Source of the DNA: a virus
Taxonomy: Duplodnaviria; Caudoviricetes
Strand: one strand, 5' to 3'
Length of the DNA stretch: 64,000 nucleotides
Virus record (IMG/VR): IMGVR_UViG_3300027991_000002
Span: 11,208 to 75,207 of that record
Both the position numbers and the translations under genes were made by a program. Positions 10,077 through 18,855 of the stretch are shown here, piece by piece. Under the pieces are notes generated by a model. That model was not told the DNA's origin. It did not search any database and was given only the letters and a program-made list of their open reading frames with translations. The number at the start of each line of letters is the position of its first letter. Positions within the stretch are counted from its first letter, which is position 1.

Positions 10077-11108
10077 ATGCAAGCAACAGAAACGAATGCC
10101 CTTGTTCAAGTAGTTGAAACAAGCGGACTCGAACAAACTAAAGGGCAAATCCTTTTAGGAATGTTCACCCCATACTTTAACCGTATGGCAGAAATTGAGG
10201 GTAAAATTAATTTGCTCAATAAAGAAAATCCATCTCCTCAAGATGTGAGCGCGGCAAGAGATATTCGTATCTCTCTGATGAAAGAGGTTCGCAAGCCAGC
10301 CGAGCGCGTGAAGGATGAAGGAAAAAAGTCAATCCTTATTGAAGGTCGCCTGTATGACAATCTATACGGAGTGATTAACAACACCTCCAAAGGGCTTGAA
10401 ATGCAATGTGAGCAAATTGAAAAGTTCGCTGAACTTCGAGATTTAAAAATGCGTGAAGAAAGAAAGGTTAAACGAGTAGAGCAACTTTCTCCCTATGTTC
10501 CTGATATTTCATTTTACGATTTACTCAATATGCCTGACGATGCTTTTAACTCATTACTTGCTACTCAAAAAGCAGGACAAGAGGCATTGTTAGCCCAACA
10601 AAAAAGAGAAGAAGAAGAAAGAATCGCAAAGGAAAAAGCTGATGCCGAAGCGCGTGAAGCACAGAGGGTAGAAAATGAACGGCTTAAAGCAGAGGCGGCA
10701 GAAAAGGAAAGGCAACTTGCCGAAGAACGCGCAAAAGTAGAAGCGGAGCGTAAAGCCGCAGAAGAAAAGTTACGCAAGGAAAGAGCCGAAGCCGATGCTA
10801 AAATAAAAGCCGCGCAGGAAGCGCAAGCCAAGGTTGAGGCAGAATTAAAAGCCAAAGCCGATGCAGAAGAAAAAGCGAAGCGTGAAGCCGAAGCAAAAGC
10901 AGCAGCCGAACTAAAAGCACAACAAGCCGCAGAAAAGAAAGCCGCGAAAGCACCTGACAAAGAAAAACTAAATAAATGGATTTCTGATTTTGACTTGCAA
11001 CCGCTTCTCACATTAAAAGATGCTGGCGCAAAACAAATTGAAGAAGATATAGTCAGAAAGTTTTCTGCATTTAAAACATGGGCATTGCAACAAATCGAAA
11101 CGCTATGA
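10077..11108 (+). CDS. coiled-coil protein (343 aa) of the recombination module
   Basis: Long Ala/Glu/Lys-rich helix; lies between SSB-like gene and nuclease. Confidence 0.75.
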   Translation: MQATETNALVQVVETSGLEQTKGQILLGMFTPYFNRMAEIEGKINLLNKENPSPQDVSAARDIRISLMKEVRKPAERVKDEGKKSILIEGRLYDNLYGVINNTSKGLEMQCEQIEKFAELRDLKMREERKVKRVEQLSPYVPDISFYDLLNMPDDAFNSLLATQKAGQEALLAQQKREEEERIAKEKADAEAREAQRVENERLKAEAAEKERQLAEERAKVEAERKAAEEKLRKERAEADAKIKAAQEAQAKVEAELKAKADAEEKAKREAEAKAAAELKAQQAAEKKAAKAPDKEKLNKWISDFDLQPLLTLKDAGAKQIEEDIVRKFSAFKTWALQQIETL

Positions 11109-12115: not shown

Positions 12116-12148
12116 AACAGTTGAATAGCCCCTCATGTAAACCAATAG

Positions 12149-12238
12149 ATAGAACGAAGAAGCACTAACGAATGTAAAATTTTTGCCATTGAAAACAGAC
12201 AGATTAAAAATTTTATTTCGCTTTGTGCTGTGTTATGC
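12149..12238. repeat. attC-like site A (90 bp)
   Basis: AAC gaaga AGCACTAACGAATGTAAAATTTTT ... AAAAATTTTATTTCGCTTTGTGCT gt GTT. Confidence 0.75.
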
Positions 12239-12324
12239 GAGTGCGCATGGATTTTATGCGGTGGGGTTCGTTCTTTTTTCTGTTTTCAATTTTTAGCGTT
12301 GGCATTAATTAAACAATCATAAAT

Positions 12325-12741
12325 ATGAAAAGGCAACAAACAATAGTATCGGAAAAAGAAATCCTGAAACTCGGTGGAGTTGATAAGGGATATAAATTTG
12401 AACGCACCAAGCATGAACATGGGGATAGAGAAAAAATATTCTATAAGCAATGGAAGAAGGAAAATAAGCAGTTACGATGGCTAAACTTCGGGCAGGGAAT
12501 ATTGCAGGATTTATTTGCCATTACTGGTAATAATCCTTTCAACTTTATGAGGGGAGGATTGATAGGTTGGAAATTAATAATCAACAGGAGGGATAGATAC
12601 ATTGTGGCAACAGTGATGCAATGGCTCGGAACAAATTGCGGTTGGTGCTGGCTTGAAGAAACACTTAGGAAGTGCGGGTACAGATTAGAAAAAATTGAGC
12701 GGGAGGAAAAAATTGAAAACAGAAAAAAGAATGTCGCATAA
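12325..12741 (+). CDS. cassette cargo, hypothetical protein (138 aa)
   Basis: Stop TAA lies inside TCGCATAAC of site B; VATVMQWLGTNCG motif. Confidence 0.8.
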   Translation: MKRQQTIVSEKEILKLGGVDKGYKFERTKHEHGDREKIFYKQWKKENKQLRWLNFGQGILQDLFAITGNNPFNFMRGGLIGWKLIINRRDRYIVATVMQWLGTNCGWCWLEETLRKCGYRLEKIEREEKIENRKKNVA

Positions 12742-12793
12742 CGGCAAACGCTTTATGCCGTTATTTTCAATGGCATTAAAGCGTATGTTCTAT
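12736..12793. repeat. attC-like site B (58 bp)
   Basis: AAC ggcaa ACGCTTT-ATGCC loop GGCATTAAAGCGT at GTT; one extrahelical base. Confidence 0.85.
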
Positions 12794-12818
12794 TTAGGTT
12801 TTTAAAATTCTTTGAGCG

Positions 12819-13031
12819 ATGGCAAACAAAATATGCAGAATAACAATATTAGCTTTCATGTTCGGAGATATACCGAAAGGAATTGAGAACGGATATGATG
12901 ATTGGGACTTAGAAAACGGAATACAATATTGTGAAGAATTGATGCGCTATGAAGGAATGACACATGAACCGATGGATAAGTTTGAGTTGAAGAAATATAT
13001 TGAATGGGCAAAACAGAAATTGAAAGAGTGA
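12819..13031 (+). CDS. cassette cargo, hypothetical protein (70 aa)
   Basis: ORF track; between sites B and C. Confidence 0.7.
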   Translation: MANKICRITILAFMFGDIPKGIENGYDDWDLENGIQYCEELMRYEGMTHEPMDKFELKKYIEWAKQKLKE

Positions 13032-13054
13032 GTGTGGCAATTTTAAAAACTTGA

Positions 13055-13391
13055 ATAGAACGTTGCTCGGATTGAAGAATGTAAATTAAAATTATAGCGA
13101 TGCACAAGAACAGAACAGCAAACGGATTAAGGTTGCAAGAGCAACATAACCAACGTTACAAGAAAATGTTGATAGGAAAAAAAGCGAAGGACGGGCGAAC
13201 GGTTATTAACACAGAATGGATTGGAAACAGCACATACGGATGTGTTCGATTATTTTTCGATAATCAAACCGATGATTTATGTAGTAGTACAATGGGATTT
13301 AAACCGACAAGAGAGGATTTTACAGACAGGTACGGAATTACATGGTGAGCGATGGCAATTTTAATTTATTTCTTTCAATCTGGTGTTAGTT
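13055..13391. repeat. attC-like site C (337 bp, gene in loop)
   Basis: GATTGAA-GAATGTAAATTAAAATT pairs with AATTTTAATTTATTTCTTTCAATC (13358-13380). Confidence 0.8.
13100..13348 (+). CDS. hypothetical protein inside attC C loop (82 aa)
   Basis: ORF track; bracketed by AGCGATG motifs. Confidence 0.7.
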   Translation: MHKNRTANGLRLQEQHNQRYKKMLIGKKAKDGRTVINTEWIGNSTYGCVRLFFDNQTDDLCSSTMGFKPTREDFTDRYGITW

Positions 13392-13421
13392 TTAGTTTTT
13401 AACAGGCAAACAAAATAGAAA

Positions 13422-13613
13422 ATGGAAAAGTTATCAGACAAAGCAGAAAAGAGAATTAAGAAAATCTATCCTGATGCGAGGGCAGAGAGGGATGGCGCAA
13501 TGTTCTTTATAGTAACTGACTTACTTAAAGGAGAGGACAGAACTTTAGGTGGTGGATTTAGCAGAGATGGCGCGTGGTGTAGCGCGGGTTGCTCTGTGCC
13601 TGTTAAAAATTGA
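13422..13613 (+). CDS. cassette cargo, hypothetical protein (63 aa)
   Basis: ORF track; ends in the outer arm of site D. Confidence 0.7.
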   Translation: MEKLSDKAEKRIKKIYPDARAERDGAMFFIVTDLLKGEDRTLGGGFSRDGAWCSAGCSVPVKN

Positions 13614-13959
13614 AACTAACGAGGAAGGATTTGTGAAGTAAAATTTTCGATTAAAAACTATAACCTTTAAAAACAGAAAAGCGATGGAAGTAAAAGGATT
13701 TTATATCAGAAGCAATGGCGACCCTTCGGTTGGTATATTCTCTGCTCAATGGGAATTGCGAAATGACTTCGTATTTGACGACATAGAAGATTTGGAATAT
13801 TTCAGGTCGGGGCTTGCGCGTTTGCTCGGTGAGCATTGCGGGGAGAGGTGCTATGTGCAAACTTTTGAGGAGTGGGCTGAACAAATTAAATTAGAAGAAA
13901 AAATGTGTAGTGACGCACAGAAGGAAGAAAATTTTATTTCATCAAATCCTGTGTTGTCG
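13614..13959. repeat. attC-like site D (346 bp)
   Basis: GGATTTG-TGAAGTAAAATTTT pairs with AAAATTTTATTTCATCAAATCC (13928-13949), then tgt GTT at 13953. Confidence 0.8.
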
Positions 13960-14046
13960 GATAGTTTGCCTTTTGATTTAGCAAGTCATCCTGACACAGA
14001 AGCTGACGGACATGTATTCTGCGGTAAATGTGGAAAAGAAAAGTGA
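13684..14046 (+). CDS. hypothetical protein reading through the attC D arm (120 aa)
   Basis: Peptide ENFISSNPVLSDSL is the attC arm; C-terminal CxxC. Confidence 0.7.
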   Translation: MEVKGFYIRSNGDPSVGIFSAQWELRNDFVFDDIEDLEYFRSGLARLLGEHCGERCYVQTFEEWAEQIKLEEKMCSDAQKEENFISSNPVLSDSLPFDLASHPDTEADGHVFCGKCGKEK

Positions 14047-14056
14047 GGCAAATTTC

Positions 14057-14588
14057 CGACAACGGGAAGGGGATTGAAGAATGTATTTTAATTTTTTAGC
14101 ATGGGCAAACTAATGGTAACACCAATATTCCAAAACGAAGCGTTCGCGTTCATCGAACAACACCACAGGCATCATAGAAAGCCAGTAGGCAGCGTGTTTC
14201 AGATTGCAGTGAGCGAGGGTGAGCGTGTGGCAGGGGTGGCGGTTGTTGGCAGACCAAACGGACGAAAACAGCAGGACGGATTTACATTAGAAGTTACACG
14301 GCTATGCACAGACGGAACTAAAAATGCCTGCTCAATGCTTTATGCAGCTTGCTGGAGAGCAGCCAAAGAATTAGGTTATCGAAAACTGATTACATACATA
14401 CTGAACACTGAGCCGGGGACATCATTAAAAGCAAGCGGGTGGAGATGCGTTGGGGAGCGCGGTGGCGGGAGTTGGAACGTACCGAGCCGCCCCCGTGTTG
14501 ACAAACATCCGTTGCAGAAAAAATTGTTATTTGAAATCGAGTAGCGCGATGGGAAAATTAAAATATTTCTTTCAATCCCATGTTGTTG
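14057..14588. repeat. attC-like site E (532 bp, gene in loop)
   Basis: GGGATTGAA-GAATGTATTTTAATTTT pairs with AAAATTAAAATATTTCTTTCAATCCC, then at GTT at 14582. Confidence 0.8.
14101..14544 (+). CDS. XF1762-family (Mom-like GNAT-fold) protein
   Basis: FIEQHHRHH, GVAVVGRP, TLEVTRLCTDGTKNACSMLY, LITYIL, GTSLKASGW motifs. Confidence 0.8.
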   Translation: MGKLMVTPIFQNEAFAFIEQHHRHHRKPVGSVFQIAVSEGERVAGVAVVGRPNGRKQQDGFTLEVTRLCTDGTKNACSMLYAACWRAAKELGYRKLITYILNTEPGTSLKASGWRCVGERGGGSWNVPSRPRVDKHPLQKKLLFEIE

Positions 14589-14621
14589 GCAGCGTAGCTG
14601 AGTTTGCTTTTCGCAAATTGC

Positions 14622-14831
14622 CAACAACGTCACGCAGGATTTATGAAGGATTTTTTACGATTTTAAAACCAACAAATATGAAAACACCAAAAGAAATTTT
14701 AGAAGGAAAACAAGCATTCAAAGATTTCCTGTATAAAGCACCCGACTGGATTAGGGAAGACATTATTGCAGCAATGATGGAATACGCATTGGAGCAAGTA
14801 AAAAATCTTTCATTAAATCCTGTTGTTGTTG
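14622..14831. repeat. attC-like site F (210 bp)
   Basis: AGGATTT-ATGAAGGATTTTTTAC pairs with GTAAAAAATCTTTCATTAAATCCT, then gtt GTT at 14825. Confidence 0.8.
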
Positions 14832-14938
14832 GGCGCAGCGAACAGTTAAAATCTGACTTGTACAAATTCAGGGATATGTATTGTCAAAATATTGACTTAG
14901 CTACCATAGATGAATATGTTGACGGCTTAGGATTTTAA
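14678..14938 (+). CDS. hypothetical protein reading through the attC F arm (86 aa)
   Basis: Start moved to ATG 14678 (A-rich context); VKNLSLNPVVVGRSEQL is encoded by the arm. Confidence 0.65.
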   Translation: MKTPKEILEGKQAFKDFLYKAPDWIREDIIAAMMEYALEQVKNLSLNPVVVGRSEQLKSDLYKFRDMYCQNIDLATIDEYVDGLGF

Positions 14939-14942
14939 TTGC

Positions 14943-15073
14943 CAACAACGTTCATCGGATTTATTCTCGTTGCATTAAATGATAAAAACTTAAACCATAA
15001 ATAAAACTCATTATGAAAAACAAACCTACGATTAAAAAGAAAGCCAGCAATGGAATGAAATCCGTTGTTCATG
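14943..15073. repeat. attC-like site G (131 bp)
   Basis: GGATTT-ATTCTCGTTGC pairs with GCAATGGAATGAAATCC, then gtt GTT at 15067. Confidence 0.7.
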
Positions 15074-15333
15074 GCAGTGCGGATAAATGGTCAAAAATTA
15101 AGTGGAGCAAAAAAGTTTTGCAAAAAGCGCAGGAAAATCATATCTGGTTGAACGCTTTTGATTGCGTAAGACCGACACCTGCATTCTGCGAAAGTCTTGG
15201 TAGGTCAATCATCAATAAATTACGGGATGAAGAAAATTTAATCCCGATGAGTGGCATTACATCGGATGTTGAAGCGATGCGAGAGATTGCAAAACTTACC
15301 CCGATAATGTACATGAGCATTAACAAGAGCTAA
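15013..15333 (+). CDS. hypothetical protein reading through the attC G arm (106 aa)
   Basis: ASNGMKSVVHGSA is encoded by the arm. Confidence 0.65.
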   Translation: MKNKPTIKKKASNGMKSVVHGSADKWSKIKWSKKVLQKAQENHIWLNAFDCVRPTPAFCESLGRSIINKLRDEENLIPMSGITSDVEAMREIAKLTPIMYMSINKS

Positions 15334-15347
15334 GATGTGAGCATTGC

Positions 15348-15404
15348 CATGAACGGTAGAGATTGTTGCCGTTAATTTCAATGGCATACAATCTAATGTT
15401 ATCT
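15348..15404. repeat. attC-like site H (57 bp)
   Basis: AGATTGT-TGCC gttaatttcaat GGCATACAATCT; loop nearly identical to that of site B. Confidence 0.85.
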
Positions 15405-15436
15405 GCCGTTTTGGATTAACTAAATAAATATAAATT

Positions 15437-15742
15437 ATGAAAGCAAAAGAGTATGCACAAAGGGTAACAAGTACAGAAAATGTTCAAGATGCAATGACTG
15501 AGCTTGGCAAATGCGGAAAAGATTTTTTCAACGAATTTATCGCAATGAGAAAATCACGTAACATAAAAACCGATGATGGATTATTAACGCTGGTGAAAGA
15601 GTTCGATAATAAATTCAGAACATTTTCTGTACTTGTGGATTCACACTACAAAGGGATGGTTAAACCAAATGGATTCATTGAACTGCTTCGGGAGTTTGTT
15701 CCTGTACTTGCTAATGAATATGAAAGGAAAAATGGCAGATAA
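15437..15742 (+). CDS. cassette cargo, hypothetical protein (101 aa)
   Basis: Stop TAA lies inside GCAGATAAC of site I. Confidence 0.75.
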   Translation: MKAKEYAQRVTSTENVQDAMTELGKCGKDFFNEFIAMRKSRNIKTDDGLLTLVKEFDNKFRTFSVLVDSHYKGMVKPNGFIELLREFVPVLANEYERKNGR

Positions 15743-16571
15743 CGGTTACGGCTTTAAGCAGTGGGGATTATTAGCACAAATGTTCAATCGAAGCGATAAA
15801 AAAAATAAAGAAAAATTTTTAGGGAGGCATTTTTAATTTAATCATTTAATCATAAATAAAACAAAATGGAAAAAGTAACAAACACAGCAAAGAACCCACG
15901 ACTTGAATGGTTGATGGGTGGAAATCCTAATGCTATTGAAGCACAGGAAGTGCAAGGACAAAAGGAACTTGTGAAATCATCACAACTACCAGCGAAAGTA
16001 AATTCGCCAAGAGGAGTGAACATTGAGGAGCAATACGCCTTGATGGGAATAAAAGTAATTGGCAAAACCAAAGGAGATGAATTATTCCTTGATGTGGAAT
16101 TGCCAAATGGGTGGAAGAAGGAAGCAACCGACCATTCAATGTGGAATAAATTGGTTGATGATAAAGGAAGGGAAAGGGCAAGTTTCTTTTACAAAGCTGC
16201 ATTTTATGACCGAGATGCTTTTGTGAATTTTAGCACACGGTATAATTGGAATGCCAATTACGAGGATAAGGACAATGTGAGCTACTTTGTAAAAGATAAC
16301 TCCATAGGTGAAATTGTATTTGAAACAGAAAAGATGAGTAAAGATGTAAAACAGCCGAACTACTTTAAAATACAGGATGAGTTACAAAACCAATGTAAAC
16401 AATTTCTGAAAGACAAGTTCCCTGAACACGAAAACATAAATGCTTATTGGAATTAAATCATTTAATCATTAAGAGCGTGGGCAAAAATTTTTCTTTATTT
16501 TTTTTCGTTCATATCAGCACGAACTTAAATATGGAGCGATACACCCCATTGCTTTAAAGCCGATGTTATGC
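15737..16571. repeat. attC-like site I (835 bp, gene in loop)
   Basis: CGGCTTT-AAGCAGTGGGG / CCCCATTGCTTTAAAGCCG plus AAAAAAAATAAAGAAAAATTTTT / AAAAATTTTTCTTTATTTTTTTT. Confidence 0.85.
15866..16456 (+). CDS. conserved phage protein inside attC I loop (196 aa)
   Basis: NPNAIEAQEVQGQKELV, LPNGWKKEATDHSMW, GRERASFFYKAAFYDRDA motifs. Confidence 0.85.
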   Translation: MEKVTNTAKNPRLEWLMGGNPNAIEAQEVQGQKELVKSSQLPAKVNSPRGVNIEEQYALMGIKVIGKTKGDELFLDVELPNGWKKEATDHSMWNKLVDDKGRERASFFYKAAFYDRDAFVNFSTRYNWNANYEDKDNVSYFVKDNSIGEIVFETEKMSKDVKQPNYFKIQDELQNQCKQFLKDKFPEHENINAYWN

Positions 16572-16733
16572 GAAGTTGCCAATACCAAATTCAAAAAGAC
16601 AAAAAACTCATTGGCAATTTTGCATAACGTTCGAGGATAAACGAAGTGCATGAGTAACCGAAAAATTAACTGAACAGCAAGTAAGAAATTTTAATAAAAA
16701 TATTTTTAGGGAGGGAATTTAAAAAACAACATT

Positions 16734-16892
16734 ATGAAAATAAACTTTGATGTGAACCTGCCGGATTGGTTTGTAATAACCGGACTTACTGTTTTTACAG
16801 TTTGGATGATTCTTGACATAATAAAAAACTGGCTCAAACTTATCATTTGGAATTATGAGAGGAAAATTAAAAAAATGGAAAACGAAAAGTAA
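16734..16892 (+). CDS. small membrane protein inside attC J loop (52 aa)
   Basis: Translated by hand; one hydrophobic helix; TAATG coupling to next gene. Confidence 0.6.
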   Translation: MKINFDVNLPDWFVITGLTVFTVWMILDIIKNWLKLIIWNYERKIKKMENEK

Positions 16893-17317
16893 TGGCAATC
16901 TTAAACTATACAACCTCCATTGATTCTGAAAAGACAATCGGAGAGATTCAAAAATGCTTAGTGAAGCACGGGGCAATGAAAATCACCACTGATTATCAGA
17001 ACGGGATTCCATGCGCTGTTACTTTCTGCCTAATCATCAAAGAGAATATGGTTGGGTTTGCATTGCCAGCAAATTATTCAGGCGTTCTCAGGGCAATGAA
17101 GCGAGATGGAAAAGTTCCGCGCTCAAAATGCACAGAGGAGCAGGCAATAAAAGTTTCATGGAGAATAGTGAAAGACTGGGTTGAAGCGCAGATGGCAATA
17201 GTTGAAGCTGAACTTGCACAGATGGCGGAAGTGTTTTTGCCGTATGCAGTTACAAAGAATGGAAACACTCTTTGGAAACAGATGGAAGGAAACGGAATGT
17301 TATTACTTAACTCTTAA
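16892..17317 (+). CDS. conserved phage protein inside attC J loop (141 aa)
   Basis: NYTTSI..EKTIGEIQ..L..HGA, VSWRIVKDWVEAQMA, EVFLPY motifs. Confidence 0.85.
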   Translation: MAILNYTTSIDSEKTIGEIQKCLVKHGAMKITTDYQNGIPCAVTFCLIIKENMVGFALPANYSGVLRAMKRDGKVPRSKCTEEQAIKVSWRIVKDWVEAQMAIVEAELAQMAEVFLPYAVTKNGNTLWKQMEGNGMLLLNS

Positions 17318-17485
17318 CCTTTTTACAATTTGAAAAATTGTGATGAGCGTAGGCAAAATATTTTTATTAAAATTTCTCTAACCGTAATTGACAGTACAGA
17401 TGGAAGCATTTCGTTTATCCTTTGTTATCAGATGAAAAATTATCCCTTTTGAGCGCGGGATGCTCGTAATTTAATAATTACAAAA

Positions 17486-17683
17486 ATGAAAACATGGGAA
17501 TATAAAATTAATAGCGTAAATGAATATGATGCTTTTGAAAATGTTGGCGGCTCGGTTGCCGAAAGAATTTTAGATGGAGCGTCAAAAGACGGATGGGAAT
17601 TAGTGTCTGTTGTCGGAATAAACACAATGGTAATTTTTTACTTTAAAAGAGAATTAAATAATGGAGGTGCGGTGGCGGGATAA
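17486..17683 (+). CDS. DUF4177-like small protein (cassette cargo)
   Basis: MKTWEYK ... DGWELVSV ... FYFKRE signature. Confidence 0.8.
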   Translation: MKTWEYKINSVNEYDAFENVGGSVAERILDGASKDGWELVSVVGINTMVIFYFKRELNNGGAVAG

Positions 17684-17692
17684 TTTTTTTTC

Positions 17693-17820
17693 TGATAACG
17701 GATGAAGATAAAAGAAGCAGCCCTAAATAGAATGTTCAGCGGGTACGTAACCGATAGGGTAACTGAACTTAGGCAGACCTCCGATTTTGCTCGGCTGTTT
17801 CTTTTTATCTTGTGTTGTGT
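17693..17820. repeat. attC-like site K (128 bp)
   Basis: AAC ggatg AAGATAAAA-GAAGCAGCC pairs with GGCTGTTTCTTTTTATCTT gt GTT. Confidence 0.85.
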
Positions 17821-17878
17821 GAGAGCATAGGGATTTCAGGCGATGGGCAGTTTTTAACTTAAAATAATTTTAAAGCGT

Positions 17879-18193
17879 ATGGCAAAGATTTATTTCAGCA
17901 AATACAATGATGAGGAAGTGGCTTATACATTGGACTATTGGAAAACTTACATGGAAGAAAACCTCATTGAAGAAATGACATTGTTTGAAGGCAAGCGAAT
18001 GACAGGCGAGGGCTATTTCTATTGTAAAGAATACTTTGAAGTTGGATTAGCGAGAGAGTCATGTGGAAAGATATGCGAGGGATATAAGCCGAACAATGGC
18101 AAGAATGGCAGATGCAAACATTATGGATATTGCTATGAGCCAACAGATAAAAGGTTGGTGTTGCAAGCGGGCGGAAAAATTATTTTAAGTTAA
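17879..18193 (+). CDS. cassette cargo, Cys-rich protein (104 aa)
   Basis: FYCKEY, SCGKICEGYKPNNGKNGRCKHYGYCY. Confidence 0.75.
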   Translation: MAKIYFSKYNDEEVAYTLDYWKTYMEENLIEEMTLFEGKRMTGEGYFYCKEYFEVGLARESCGKICEGYKPNNGKNGRCKHYGYCYEPTDKRLVLQAGGKIILS

Positions 18194-18200
18194 AAATTTC

Positions 18201-18260
18201 ACACAACAAATATATGTATTTTTCTCTTACAACTATTTGAAACTTAAACCATAACACCAT
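18201..18260 (-). other. attI-like site
   Basis: Last AAC (18205-18207) has no hairpin partner. On the minus strand: GTTATGG (18255-18249), GTTGTAA (18233-18227), then GTTGTGTGA, directly beside the integrase-domain gene. Confidence 0.6.
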
Positions 18261-18285
18261 GCAAAATTTTTTGTATATTTAAAAC

Positions 18286-18855
18286 ATGAATAACGCTCTC
18301 ATTTATGCTTTAGCTTGTCCGGAAACAGGTCAAATAAAATATGTTGGCAAAACAAATCATTCATTAAAAAGAAGATTGCAAAATCATATAAATAACAAGA
18401 GGTCAAAAAGCAGGTGCTCTTTTTGGATTAGAGAATTAAAAAGTAAAAATATCTATCCTGAAATAATATTACTTGAAACAGTAATTGATGGGCTATGGAG
18501 ATTTAGAGAATCAGAATGGATAAAAAACTTTGGCAGAGATAATTTATTAAATGAAAACGCAGGCGGTGGAGGAATGGGGACATCTAAGATAAATTATGTT
18601 TTTTCTTTTTCCGAATCTCTTTCACAATATTCTGAAAACACTAAGAGAAACTATTTAAGCATAGTAAAAATATTCTTACATGAACATGGATGCGTTTCAA
18701 CATCAGCAGTTATTATTAATAAAAAAATGATTGAAAATTATATGATGAGATTTAAGAATAGACACAGTTATAATCAAACCTTGTCTGCATTAAAAAAATT
18801 CTTTTTATTTTTAGGTCAACCAAGAAAATTAAATGCAATTAAATATTGGTATTAA
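18286..18855 (+). CDS. GIY-YIG nuclease fused to a tyrosine-integrase N-terminal (SAM-like) domain; no catalytic integrase domain
   Basis: IYALACPETGQIKYVGKT..RLQNH..ESEWI..LLNENAGGGG, then YSENTKRNYLSIVKIFL...SYNQTLSALKKFF (compare IntI STQNQALSALLF). Confidence 0.7.
   Translation: MNNALIYALACPETGQIKYVGKTNHSLKRRLQNHINNKRSKSRCSFWIRELKSKNIYPEIILLETVIDGLWRFRESEWIKNFGRDNLLNENAGGGGMGTSKINYVFSFSESLSQYSENTKRNYLSIVKIFLHEHGCVSTSAVIINKKMIENYMMRFKNRHSYNQTLSALKKFFLFLGQPRKLNAIKYWY

Follow-up and report, generated by a model that had tools for sequence, protein, structure and literature searches.

A putative attI-type junction at the end of a polar cassette array in a tailed phage

The window analyzed here is a stretch of 64,000 nt from a tailed phage (Caudoviricetes; IMG/VR record IMGVR_UViG_3300027991_000002), the whole record of which comprises 75,207 bp with direct terminal repeats. 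On its plus strand, to which coordinates refer unless stated otherwise, a polar array of ~6 kb (12153–18207) consisting of 11 hairpins (A to K) and 12 AAC cores ends at a lone AAC, 78 bases upstream of a gene (18286–18855) identified by domain search as encoding a GIY-YIG nuclease with a SAM-like core-binding domain of the tyrosine recombinase type. The subject of this report is the junction between the two (18193–18286). A preliminary description, made from the DNA letters alone, had interpreted it as an attI-like site with crossover at AAC and with cargo genes reversed relative to the direction of the array, and comparison with related phage sequences largely supports that description. We consider it probable that an integron-like cassette platform has its attI-type end at 18193–18286, a reading in which activity in this particular phage is extrapolated from its family.

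The hairpin array and its junction with the platform gene

The hairpins were scored with an alignment-based scan that allows for bulges and mismatches. All 11 take the form AAC-(5–8 nt)-arm...arm(+1 base)-(2–4 nt)-GTT and share one polarity, the longer spacer (5–8 nt) being on the AAC side and the shorter (2–4 nt) on the GTT side, and in 10 of them (the exception is J) the GTT-side arm carries an extra base 5–9 bp into the stem. From the end of the AAC to the start of the GTT, they extend from 12155 to 12232 (A), 12742 to 12787 (B), 13061 to 13385 (C), 13620 to 13953 (D), 14063 to 14582 (E), 14628 to 14825 (F), 14949 to 15067 (G), 15354 to 15398 (H), 15743 to 16565 (I), 16628 to 17424 (J), and 17699 to 17814 (K), all on the plus strand. 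High-scoring hairpins are confined to 12153–17816, the same scan giving two weak matches elsewhere in the window. The distal end of the array is the complete hairpin A (12149–12234; hairpin scan and folding) with an ATAGAAC core, in which the AAC (12153–12155) is followed by a 5-nt spacer (GAAGA), 24-nt arms, a 2-nt spacer (GT), and the GTT at 12232. Nearest to the platform, hairpin K (17700–17813; hairpin scan and folding) is the attC-like site of the platform-proximal cassette, with its AAC at 17697–17699, a 5-nt spacer, 18- and 19-nt arms of which the 3' one bears the extra base, a 2-nt spacer, and GTT. Hairpins A, B, H, and K fold better than shuffled sequences (z from −2.1 to −3.8; −2.07 for A and −3.55 for K), with the 3'-arm bulge in each.

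Within the array, a G follows every internal AAC and a T precedes every GTT. The bases 3' of each GTT are the reverse complement of those 5' of the next AAC, and this GTT-x/x'-AAC pairing, 7–10 nt long, flanks nine bodies in the window, which is the core complementarity expected of integron cassettes; the same chain logic is found in related loci (L003, L006, L009, L024, and others). As imperfect palindromes bounded by AAC...GTT, with an extrahelical base and a uniform orientation, the 11 sites are of the attC type in structure, with the caveats that their spacer asymmetry is noncanonical and that their loops, which range from ~20 nt to ~0.8 kb, can hold whole genes (ORF3, ORF6, ORF10, and ORF11–12; ORF, open reading frame). 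The extra base of attC sites lies in the first (L''-type) arm (PMC3053210), and the earlier claim that it does so here when the array is read on the minus strand holds for 10 of the 11 hairpins; the longer spacer then falls on the wrong side, and the placement is ambiguous if taken alone. Two cassettes are “empty,” with core-to-core bodies of 47 nt (14582–14628) and 64 nt (16565–16628), and a 10-nt core, TGCCAACAAC, is present on two successive cassettes (14619–14628 and 14940–14949).

The platform-proximal cassette body (17814–18207; GTTGTGTGA ... TCACACAAC) holds ORF14 (17879–18193) and ends ...AAATTTCACACAAC, that is, CACACAAC up to 18207. Its terminal core box, AATT-TCACAC-AAC (18194–18207), follows the pattern AATK-N6-(T)AAC that is common to cassette ends in the window and in relatives. 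The AAC of this box (18205–18207) is the putative crossover point between array and platform, since divergence among relatives begins exactly there. The proposal that the array runs from a complete hairpin to a lone AAC was borne out: GTT is absent from the following 78 bases (18208–18285, which end just before the ATG at 18286), and 18201–18286 folds no better than shuffled sequences on either strand (z = −0.7 and −0.2). These 78 bases are enriched in AAC, with five copies (starting at 18231, 18241, 18247, 18253, and 18283) against a shuffle mean of 1.85 (P(≥5) = 0.015).

Three elements on the platform side of the junction are recognizable from comparison with relatives. The first is AAATATATGTAT (18208–18219; family consensus TAYTATATGTA), directly abutting the AAC. 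The second is TTACAAC (18227–18233), an AAC box 26 nt from the first, and the third is the A-rich box TATTTGAAAC (18234–18245; TTTRAAAAC in relatives), which may be either one more binding box or a portion of the platform gene's promoter or leader. Read on the minus strand, the second element is GTTGTAA (18233 to 18227), 26 nt from the junction GTT, and a further box, GTTATGG (18255 to 18249; CCATAAC at 18249–18255 on the plus strand), is 48 nt from it. Both had been likened to the accessory direct repeats of attI1; the former is conserved in position, its column being AAC in seven of nine aligned relatives, and the latter shows no conservation.

Within the platform protein, a GIY-YIG domain (residues 5–84; Pfam E = 1.3e-7) is followed by a Gly-rich linker and by the SAM-like core-binding domain (residues 114–176), after which the protein ends without a catalytic recombinase domain. 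Read on the minus strand, the locus presents divergent platform genes, the attI-like site, repeats of cassette plus hairpin, and a complete hairpin last. The integron order anticipated in the preliminary description is thereby recovered as regards platform, divergent genes, attI-like site, and polar cassettes, and the gene beside the array is not the integrase that had been anticipated, as it encodes GIY-YIG and SAM-like domains only. Beyond it lies an M15 peptidase gene in convergent orientation. The 27 nt preceding the GIY-YIG gene (18262–18288) are 78% alike to those before a flanking 345-aa gene at 11078 (11054–11080), both ending in ATTTAAAACATG, and the two stretches may represent a shared start region. 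For the 345-aa gene, a single distant locus was found (L001, 40% identity), with some polar hairpins, and the comparison was uninformative.

At the distal border of the array, AATAGATAGAAC/G (12144–12155; the slash marks the border) resembles AATAGATAGATAAC/G in the group of relatives comprising L024, L022, and L026 (L024:4950–4970) and may be a conserved distal terminal site. TAGATAG was considered as a marker of the distal flank and rejected as too common; at the distal border itself, it recurs only in the L024 group and the window.

Recombinase, conserved site, and cassette movement in relatives

Close relatives of this phage were sought among GenBank phages, by megablast with the array, and in IMG/VR, by a pattern scan for the GIY protein; neither search found any, and a word-indexed protein search with the GIY-YIG protein matched the window's own protein alone. 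An exhaustive profile-free search recovered about 14 full-length relatives of this protein at 36–45% identity, the genes for which are located downstream of similar polar hairpin chains and runs of small plus-strand genes. Directly after the GIY-YIG gene, or overlapping its end, several of these loci (L003/4/5, L008, L009/10, and L011) have a gene for a tyrosine recombinase of 264–279 aa with the full catalytic set R-K-H-R-H-Y. This enzyme is best matched by the XerA, XerD, and integron-integrase models, in all cases below the curated cut-offs (for TIGR02249, 136 bits where 265 are required), and its best solved relatives are VchIntIA (2A3V) and XerA. Its alignment to VchIntIA breaks into two blocks, and 27 of its residues stand opposite 69 in IntI, indicating that the enzyme is without the IntI-specific segment (~42 residues fewer). 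The C-terminal domain of the GIY-YIG protein and the N-terminal domain of the recombinase of relatives match each other with an E value of about 1e-16. Scanning IMG/VR with an alignment of the recombinase gave 49 loci, from most of which the GIY-YIG gene is absent.

Contigs from metagenome-assembled genomes with the closest recombinases are binned as Chitinophagaceae and other Bacteroidota. A related recombinase gene with a TAAC-TACTATATATA junction is also present on a bacterial chromosomal contig of the isolate Mesonia aquimarina MCCC 1A11700 (L069, NZ_RCNV01000001.1) and on the chromosome of a metagenome-assembled Flavisolibacter (L071). Related at 37–39% identity and with some polar hairpins alongside, these two may represent a prophage or chromosomal version of the system in a culturable host.

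In about 30 related phage contigs, the window included, the variable array ends with (T)AAC followed at once by TAYTATATGTA(A/C), the version in the window being AAC-AAATATATGTAT. This site is always located 40–140 nt upstream of the recombinase gene or of the GIY-YIG gene preceding it. An alignment of the nine most similar junctions has three conserved elements, namely TAAC-ATA-N-TATATGTAT, a second AAC-ending box 26–28 nt further on, and TTTRAAAAC, the best conserved parts on the platform side being ATATGTAT and TTTRAAAAC. In L058, the junction core is TATC rather than TAAC (L058:9903–9920), which may reflect a decayed platform; the recombinase gene of this contig is mosaic or truncated, its first 376 nt being 99.5% identical to that of L003, followed by unrelated sequence and then by sequence with 100% identity.

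Movement of cassettes is apparent from comparison among the relatives. In L019–L028, the platform is 100% identical from the AAC onward and is preceded by four different sequences. Between contigs of the L024/L027/L020 type and those of the L022/L026/L028 type, four cassettes (287–340 nt, 98.8–100% identity) differ in order and in distance from the platform, one of them being fifth from the platform in L024 and platform-proximal in L022. The borders of the relocated cassettes are all at TAAC/G and none is at GTT; where matches run 10–25 nt past TAAC/G, the neighboring cores or arms happen to resemble each other. L003 and L058, which have the window-like form of the site, also differ at AAC borders. 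These borders imply that the mobile unit extends from AAC to AAC, comprising a hairpin and the body on its right, which favors crossover at AAC over crossover at the plus-strand GTT, in agreement with the earlier proposal. Cassette mobility of the integron kind is seen in relatives only. The polarity of the arrays is also general: on the upstream side of the platform, 33 loci together have 115 hairpins in the forward orientation and 4 in the reverse, against a background of 6 forward and 10 reverse downstream of it. A homologue of ORF14 (53% amino acid identity) lies upstream of the recombinase in L031/L032, again as a unit of hairpin and body, with other core sequences.

As had been described for the window, cargo genes are antisense to the direction of the array, and this is also the case in relatives: all cargo ORFs are on the plus strand and point toward the platform, some of them within hairpin loops. 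All 12 AAC sites are left uncrossed by ORFs, provided that ORF7 does not take a doubtful start further upstream, at 14549; ORF1 and ORF9 have stops that overlap AAC, and ORF5, ORF7, and ORF8 cross GTT sites. This avoidance, which had been offered in support of crossover at AAC, stands as a description and is statistically weak by itself (0/12 AAC vs 3/11 GTT, about P = 0.09 by hand calculation). Each unit of L024 has one plus-strand ORF, which is kept within the AAC borders, and several of these ORFs stop in TAAC. ORF6 (14101–14544), located in the hairpin E loop, has a Pfam match to the Mom family (PF25680, E = 2.6e-7), and cassettes of relatives include genes of the N6_N4_Mtase (N6_N4 DNA methyltransferase) and Tad6 families, suggesting that the cargo includes DNA-modification and likely counter-defence genes. 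Many cargo genes take their start codon (M-A-...) from the motif (TTTT)AGCGATGGCA, found in the window at 12815–12826, 13348–13358, 14098–14108, and 17874–17885 and in the relative with 53% protein identity at L031:9084–9096; the motif resembles a translation-start or leader module that these genes have in common.

Mechanism and alternative explanations

If the junction is an attI-type end, we predict that the site comprises the terminal core AATT-TCACAC-AAC with its crossover AAC, the platform-side ATATATGTAT, the second AAC box, and TATTTGAAAC, and that the platform-side recognition sequence may share bases with the promoter or leader of that platform's gene. In the family, cassettes recombine at AAC as the units of polar hairpin and right-hand body traced in relatives. 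The enzyme would be the Xer/IntI-clade tyrosine recombinase encoded just downstream of the site, with one strand's folded hairpin and the platform site as its substrates, by analogy with IntI on attC and attI. Cargo is co-directional with the early genes of the phage and with the platform genes, so that transcription would run toward the platform, perhaps by the read-through from the early operon proposed in the preliminary description. The present phage has kept only the GIY-YIG nuclease with its copy of the recombinase core-binding domain, and its site could be a fossil, be used in trans during co-infection, or be a target of the nuclease.

Several observations weigh against the attI-type reading. 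The tyrosine recombinase family PF00589 has no match in the whole 75,207-bp record, by a search in which 14 of 14 control genomes score, and the site therefore cannot work autonomously in this phage; it is probably orphaned or served in trans. Because no close relative was found, turnover at 18207 is deduced from phages that are ~40% identical in the platform protein. Among relatives, different cassettes abut one identical platform, and distal cassettes, to the right of the conserved flank ...AATAGATAGATAAC/G, differ as well; the suggestion of the preliminary description that the newest cassette lies at the platform end was not established by this comparison. Distal turnover can be explained by excision. 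There is also a second mode of exchange, in which a hairpin-loop gene is replaced and both arms are kept (L003:5949–6277 vs L058:8119–8772), and not all shuffling is therefore at AAC. An inverted L box or hairpin was sought in the platform site, and the sole candidate was a weak CAAATA...TATTTG pairing that is neither significant nor conserved. Finally, the conserved motif is at promoter distance from the platform gene and may function as a promoter or operator instead of as a recombinase site, or in both capacities. As to the second mode of exchange, its borders are the ATG of the loop gene and the TTTTTAAAAAGCGATGG leader of the following gene.

A promoter function offers the best surviving alternative, in which the stretch would consist of the end of the last gene module and the promoter and 5' leader of the GIY-YIG gene, with ATATGTAT and TTTRAAAAC as transcription signals and the AAC as incidental. 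In most recombinase-only loci the motif is at a fairly fixed distance (50–67 nt) from the start codon, and a further conserved block, TAATAAAATCAATAC, is closer to it. We nevertheless regard this alternative as unlikely, given that divergence among contigs with identical platforms starts exactly at TAAC and that the same TAAC/G bounds four internal shuffled cassettes far from the platform promoter. The Bacteroidota −7 consensus TAnnTTTG, moreover, is not enriched in the window (80 matches vs 74 expected) and has no match on the plus strand of 18208–18285. Promoter matches of the sigma-70 type are not above shuffled sequences. On the minus strand, TATATTTG matches the −7 box TAnnTTTG at 18207–18214, exactly at the junction and pointing into the array; relatives do not conserve it, and a good −33 TTTG is missing at the customary distance. 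Overlap with promoters is also known for the attI sites of integrons, and a promoter role does not preclude a role in recombination.

According to another explanation, the site is the target of the GIY-YIG/core-binding protein as a homing endonuclease, and the array changes through break repair and co-conversion during co-infection. Phage enzymes of the Seg/I-TevI type begin with a GIY-YIG domain that a linker joins to a DNA-binding domain at the C terminus, which is the architecture of the window protein, and the GIY-YIG catalytic residues (Y19, R30, H34, E75, and N89) are invariant in 12 relatives. Moreover, comparison of L003:7039–7658 with L058:9967–9999 shows the GIY-YIG gene as a clean 620-nt presence/absence between the conserved site and the recombinase start codon, as is usual for genes of free-standing homing endonucleases. 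Intact catalytic residues, a DNA-binding domain of its own, and a polymorphic presence among related genomes together suggest that the protein is such an enzyme. That homing accounts for the array is less likely again than a promoter function, because the shuffling contigs L019–L028 carry no GIY-YIG gene and break repair does not predict reordered internal cassettes with exact AAC borders. Homing can be an added layer on an attI-type platform rather than a true rival to it. Least probable is that the inverted repeats act in RNA, as stems in early transcripts for RNase III-type processing or cistron stability with 18193–18286 as the last unpaired linker: the cargo is indeed all on one strand with each ORF in a stem-closed loop or between paired cores, but this accounts neither for units relocated at 98.8–100% identity with AAC borders nor for the recombinase linkage or the strict AAC/GTT cores at the DNA level, and an Rfam scan returned no family of relevance.

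Relation to known systems and wider meaning

Integrons are commonly seen as devices of bacteria, with IntI as their defining component, and the I2 segment of IntI is considered necessary for reading folded attC. The platform described here resembles them in its small, promoter-poor cassettes bounded by AAC/GTT cores, in cassettes whose first bases pair with the core that precedes their hairpin, and in imperfect palindromes that vary in sequence and are constant in structure, with an extra base in one arm and a single orientation. It further resembles them in the conserved nonpalindromic site beside a divergent recombinase gene of the Xer/IntI clade (in relatives), in the movement of units with crossover at the core triplet, and in an array that ends with a complete hairpin. 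It is nonetheless not an integron by membership, since the recombinase of relatives is without the IntI-specific region and does not reach the IntI cut-off, no such enzyme is encoded by this phage, and the cargo is antisense to the array direction with no Pc promoter seen at the platform. Other differences are the lopsided spacers (5–8 vs 2–4 nt) with ORFs that can run through arms, loops that hold whole genes to 0.8 kb, a platform site without a clear L/R inverted pair, the extra GIY-YIG/core-binding-domain gene in some platforms, and carriers that are Bacteroidota-associated phages.

Reports of integrons in phages have so far concerned captured bacterial integrons or small clusters of attC sites lacking integron integrases (CALINs) (PMC9892861), the latter with two to three canonical-model attC sites that were tested with IntI1 and with no platform or family recombinase (Qi et al. 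2023, PMC9892861). Beyond that study and general integron papers, we found no literature on a phage system of this kind. The known phage CALINs share with the present array attC-type clusters without an adjacent integron integrase, carriage by virulent-type phages, one of them with a Bacteroidota host (Polaribacter), and, in some cases, DNA methyltransferase cassettes (PMC9892861); the relatives described here also have N6_N4_Mtase cassettes. With 11 sites in series and 0 recombinases, the array in the window has the structure of a CALIN, although its sites were identified by structure and the definition of a CALIN rests on attC model calls. It differs from phage CALINs in its number of sites, its conserved platform site, the recombinase of its relatives, and the comparative evidence of shuffling.

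Other systems share particular features with the array. The pdif modules of Acinetobacter plasmids have conserved 28-bp XerC/XerD binding sequences, and the CTX phage has a folded single-stranded attP that is used by XerCD. A Xer-type recombinase, modules between inverted sites, and (for CTX) a folded single strand are points in common. Assignment to pdif modules was rejected, as the arms here differ from site to site, with only AAC/GTT, the adjacent G or T, and the AATK box being kept, and no 28-bp sites are present; the arrays are also strictly polar with a dedicated platform. Promoter early stem-loop (PeSL) cassettes in the hyperplastic regions of T4-type phages depend on homologous recombination between near-identical promoter/terminator repeats. 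As in PeSL, small early phage genes are shuffled here at repeated elements, and the second mode of exchange resembles PeSL; unlike the present platform, PeSL has no dedicated recombinase or platform site.

We judge the chances to be evenly balanced on a broader proposal, namely that phages linked to Bacteroidota carry an analogue of the integron without an IntI-type integrase. In it, a compact recombinase without I2 would shuffle cassettes at AAC and insert them at the platform, cargo would be transcribed toward the platform, and, in a subset to which this phage belongs, a GIY-YIG nuclease would have captured the core-binding domain of the recombinase and, where the latter has been lost, may target the same sites, in cassette exchange or marker exclusion.

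If true, a platform native to phages, with a recombinase clade and a site of its own and with reversed cargo, would be an independent or sister solution to cassette shuffling. The family permits a direct test of whether structure-specific recombination of single strands needs the IntI insertion, and the AAC-to-AAC rule delimits cassettes in metagenomic phage contigs. Such a platform would help to explain the hyperplastic early regions of these phages, and its pool of small early genes, Mom-like and methyltransferase cassettes among them, would be a source of candidates for host takeover and counter-defence.

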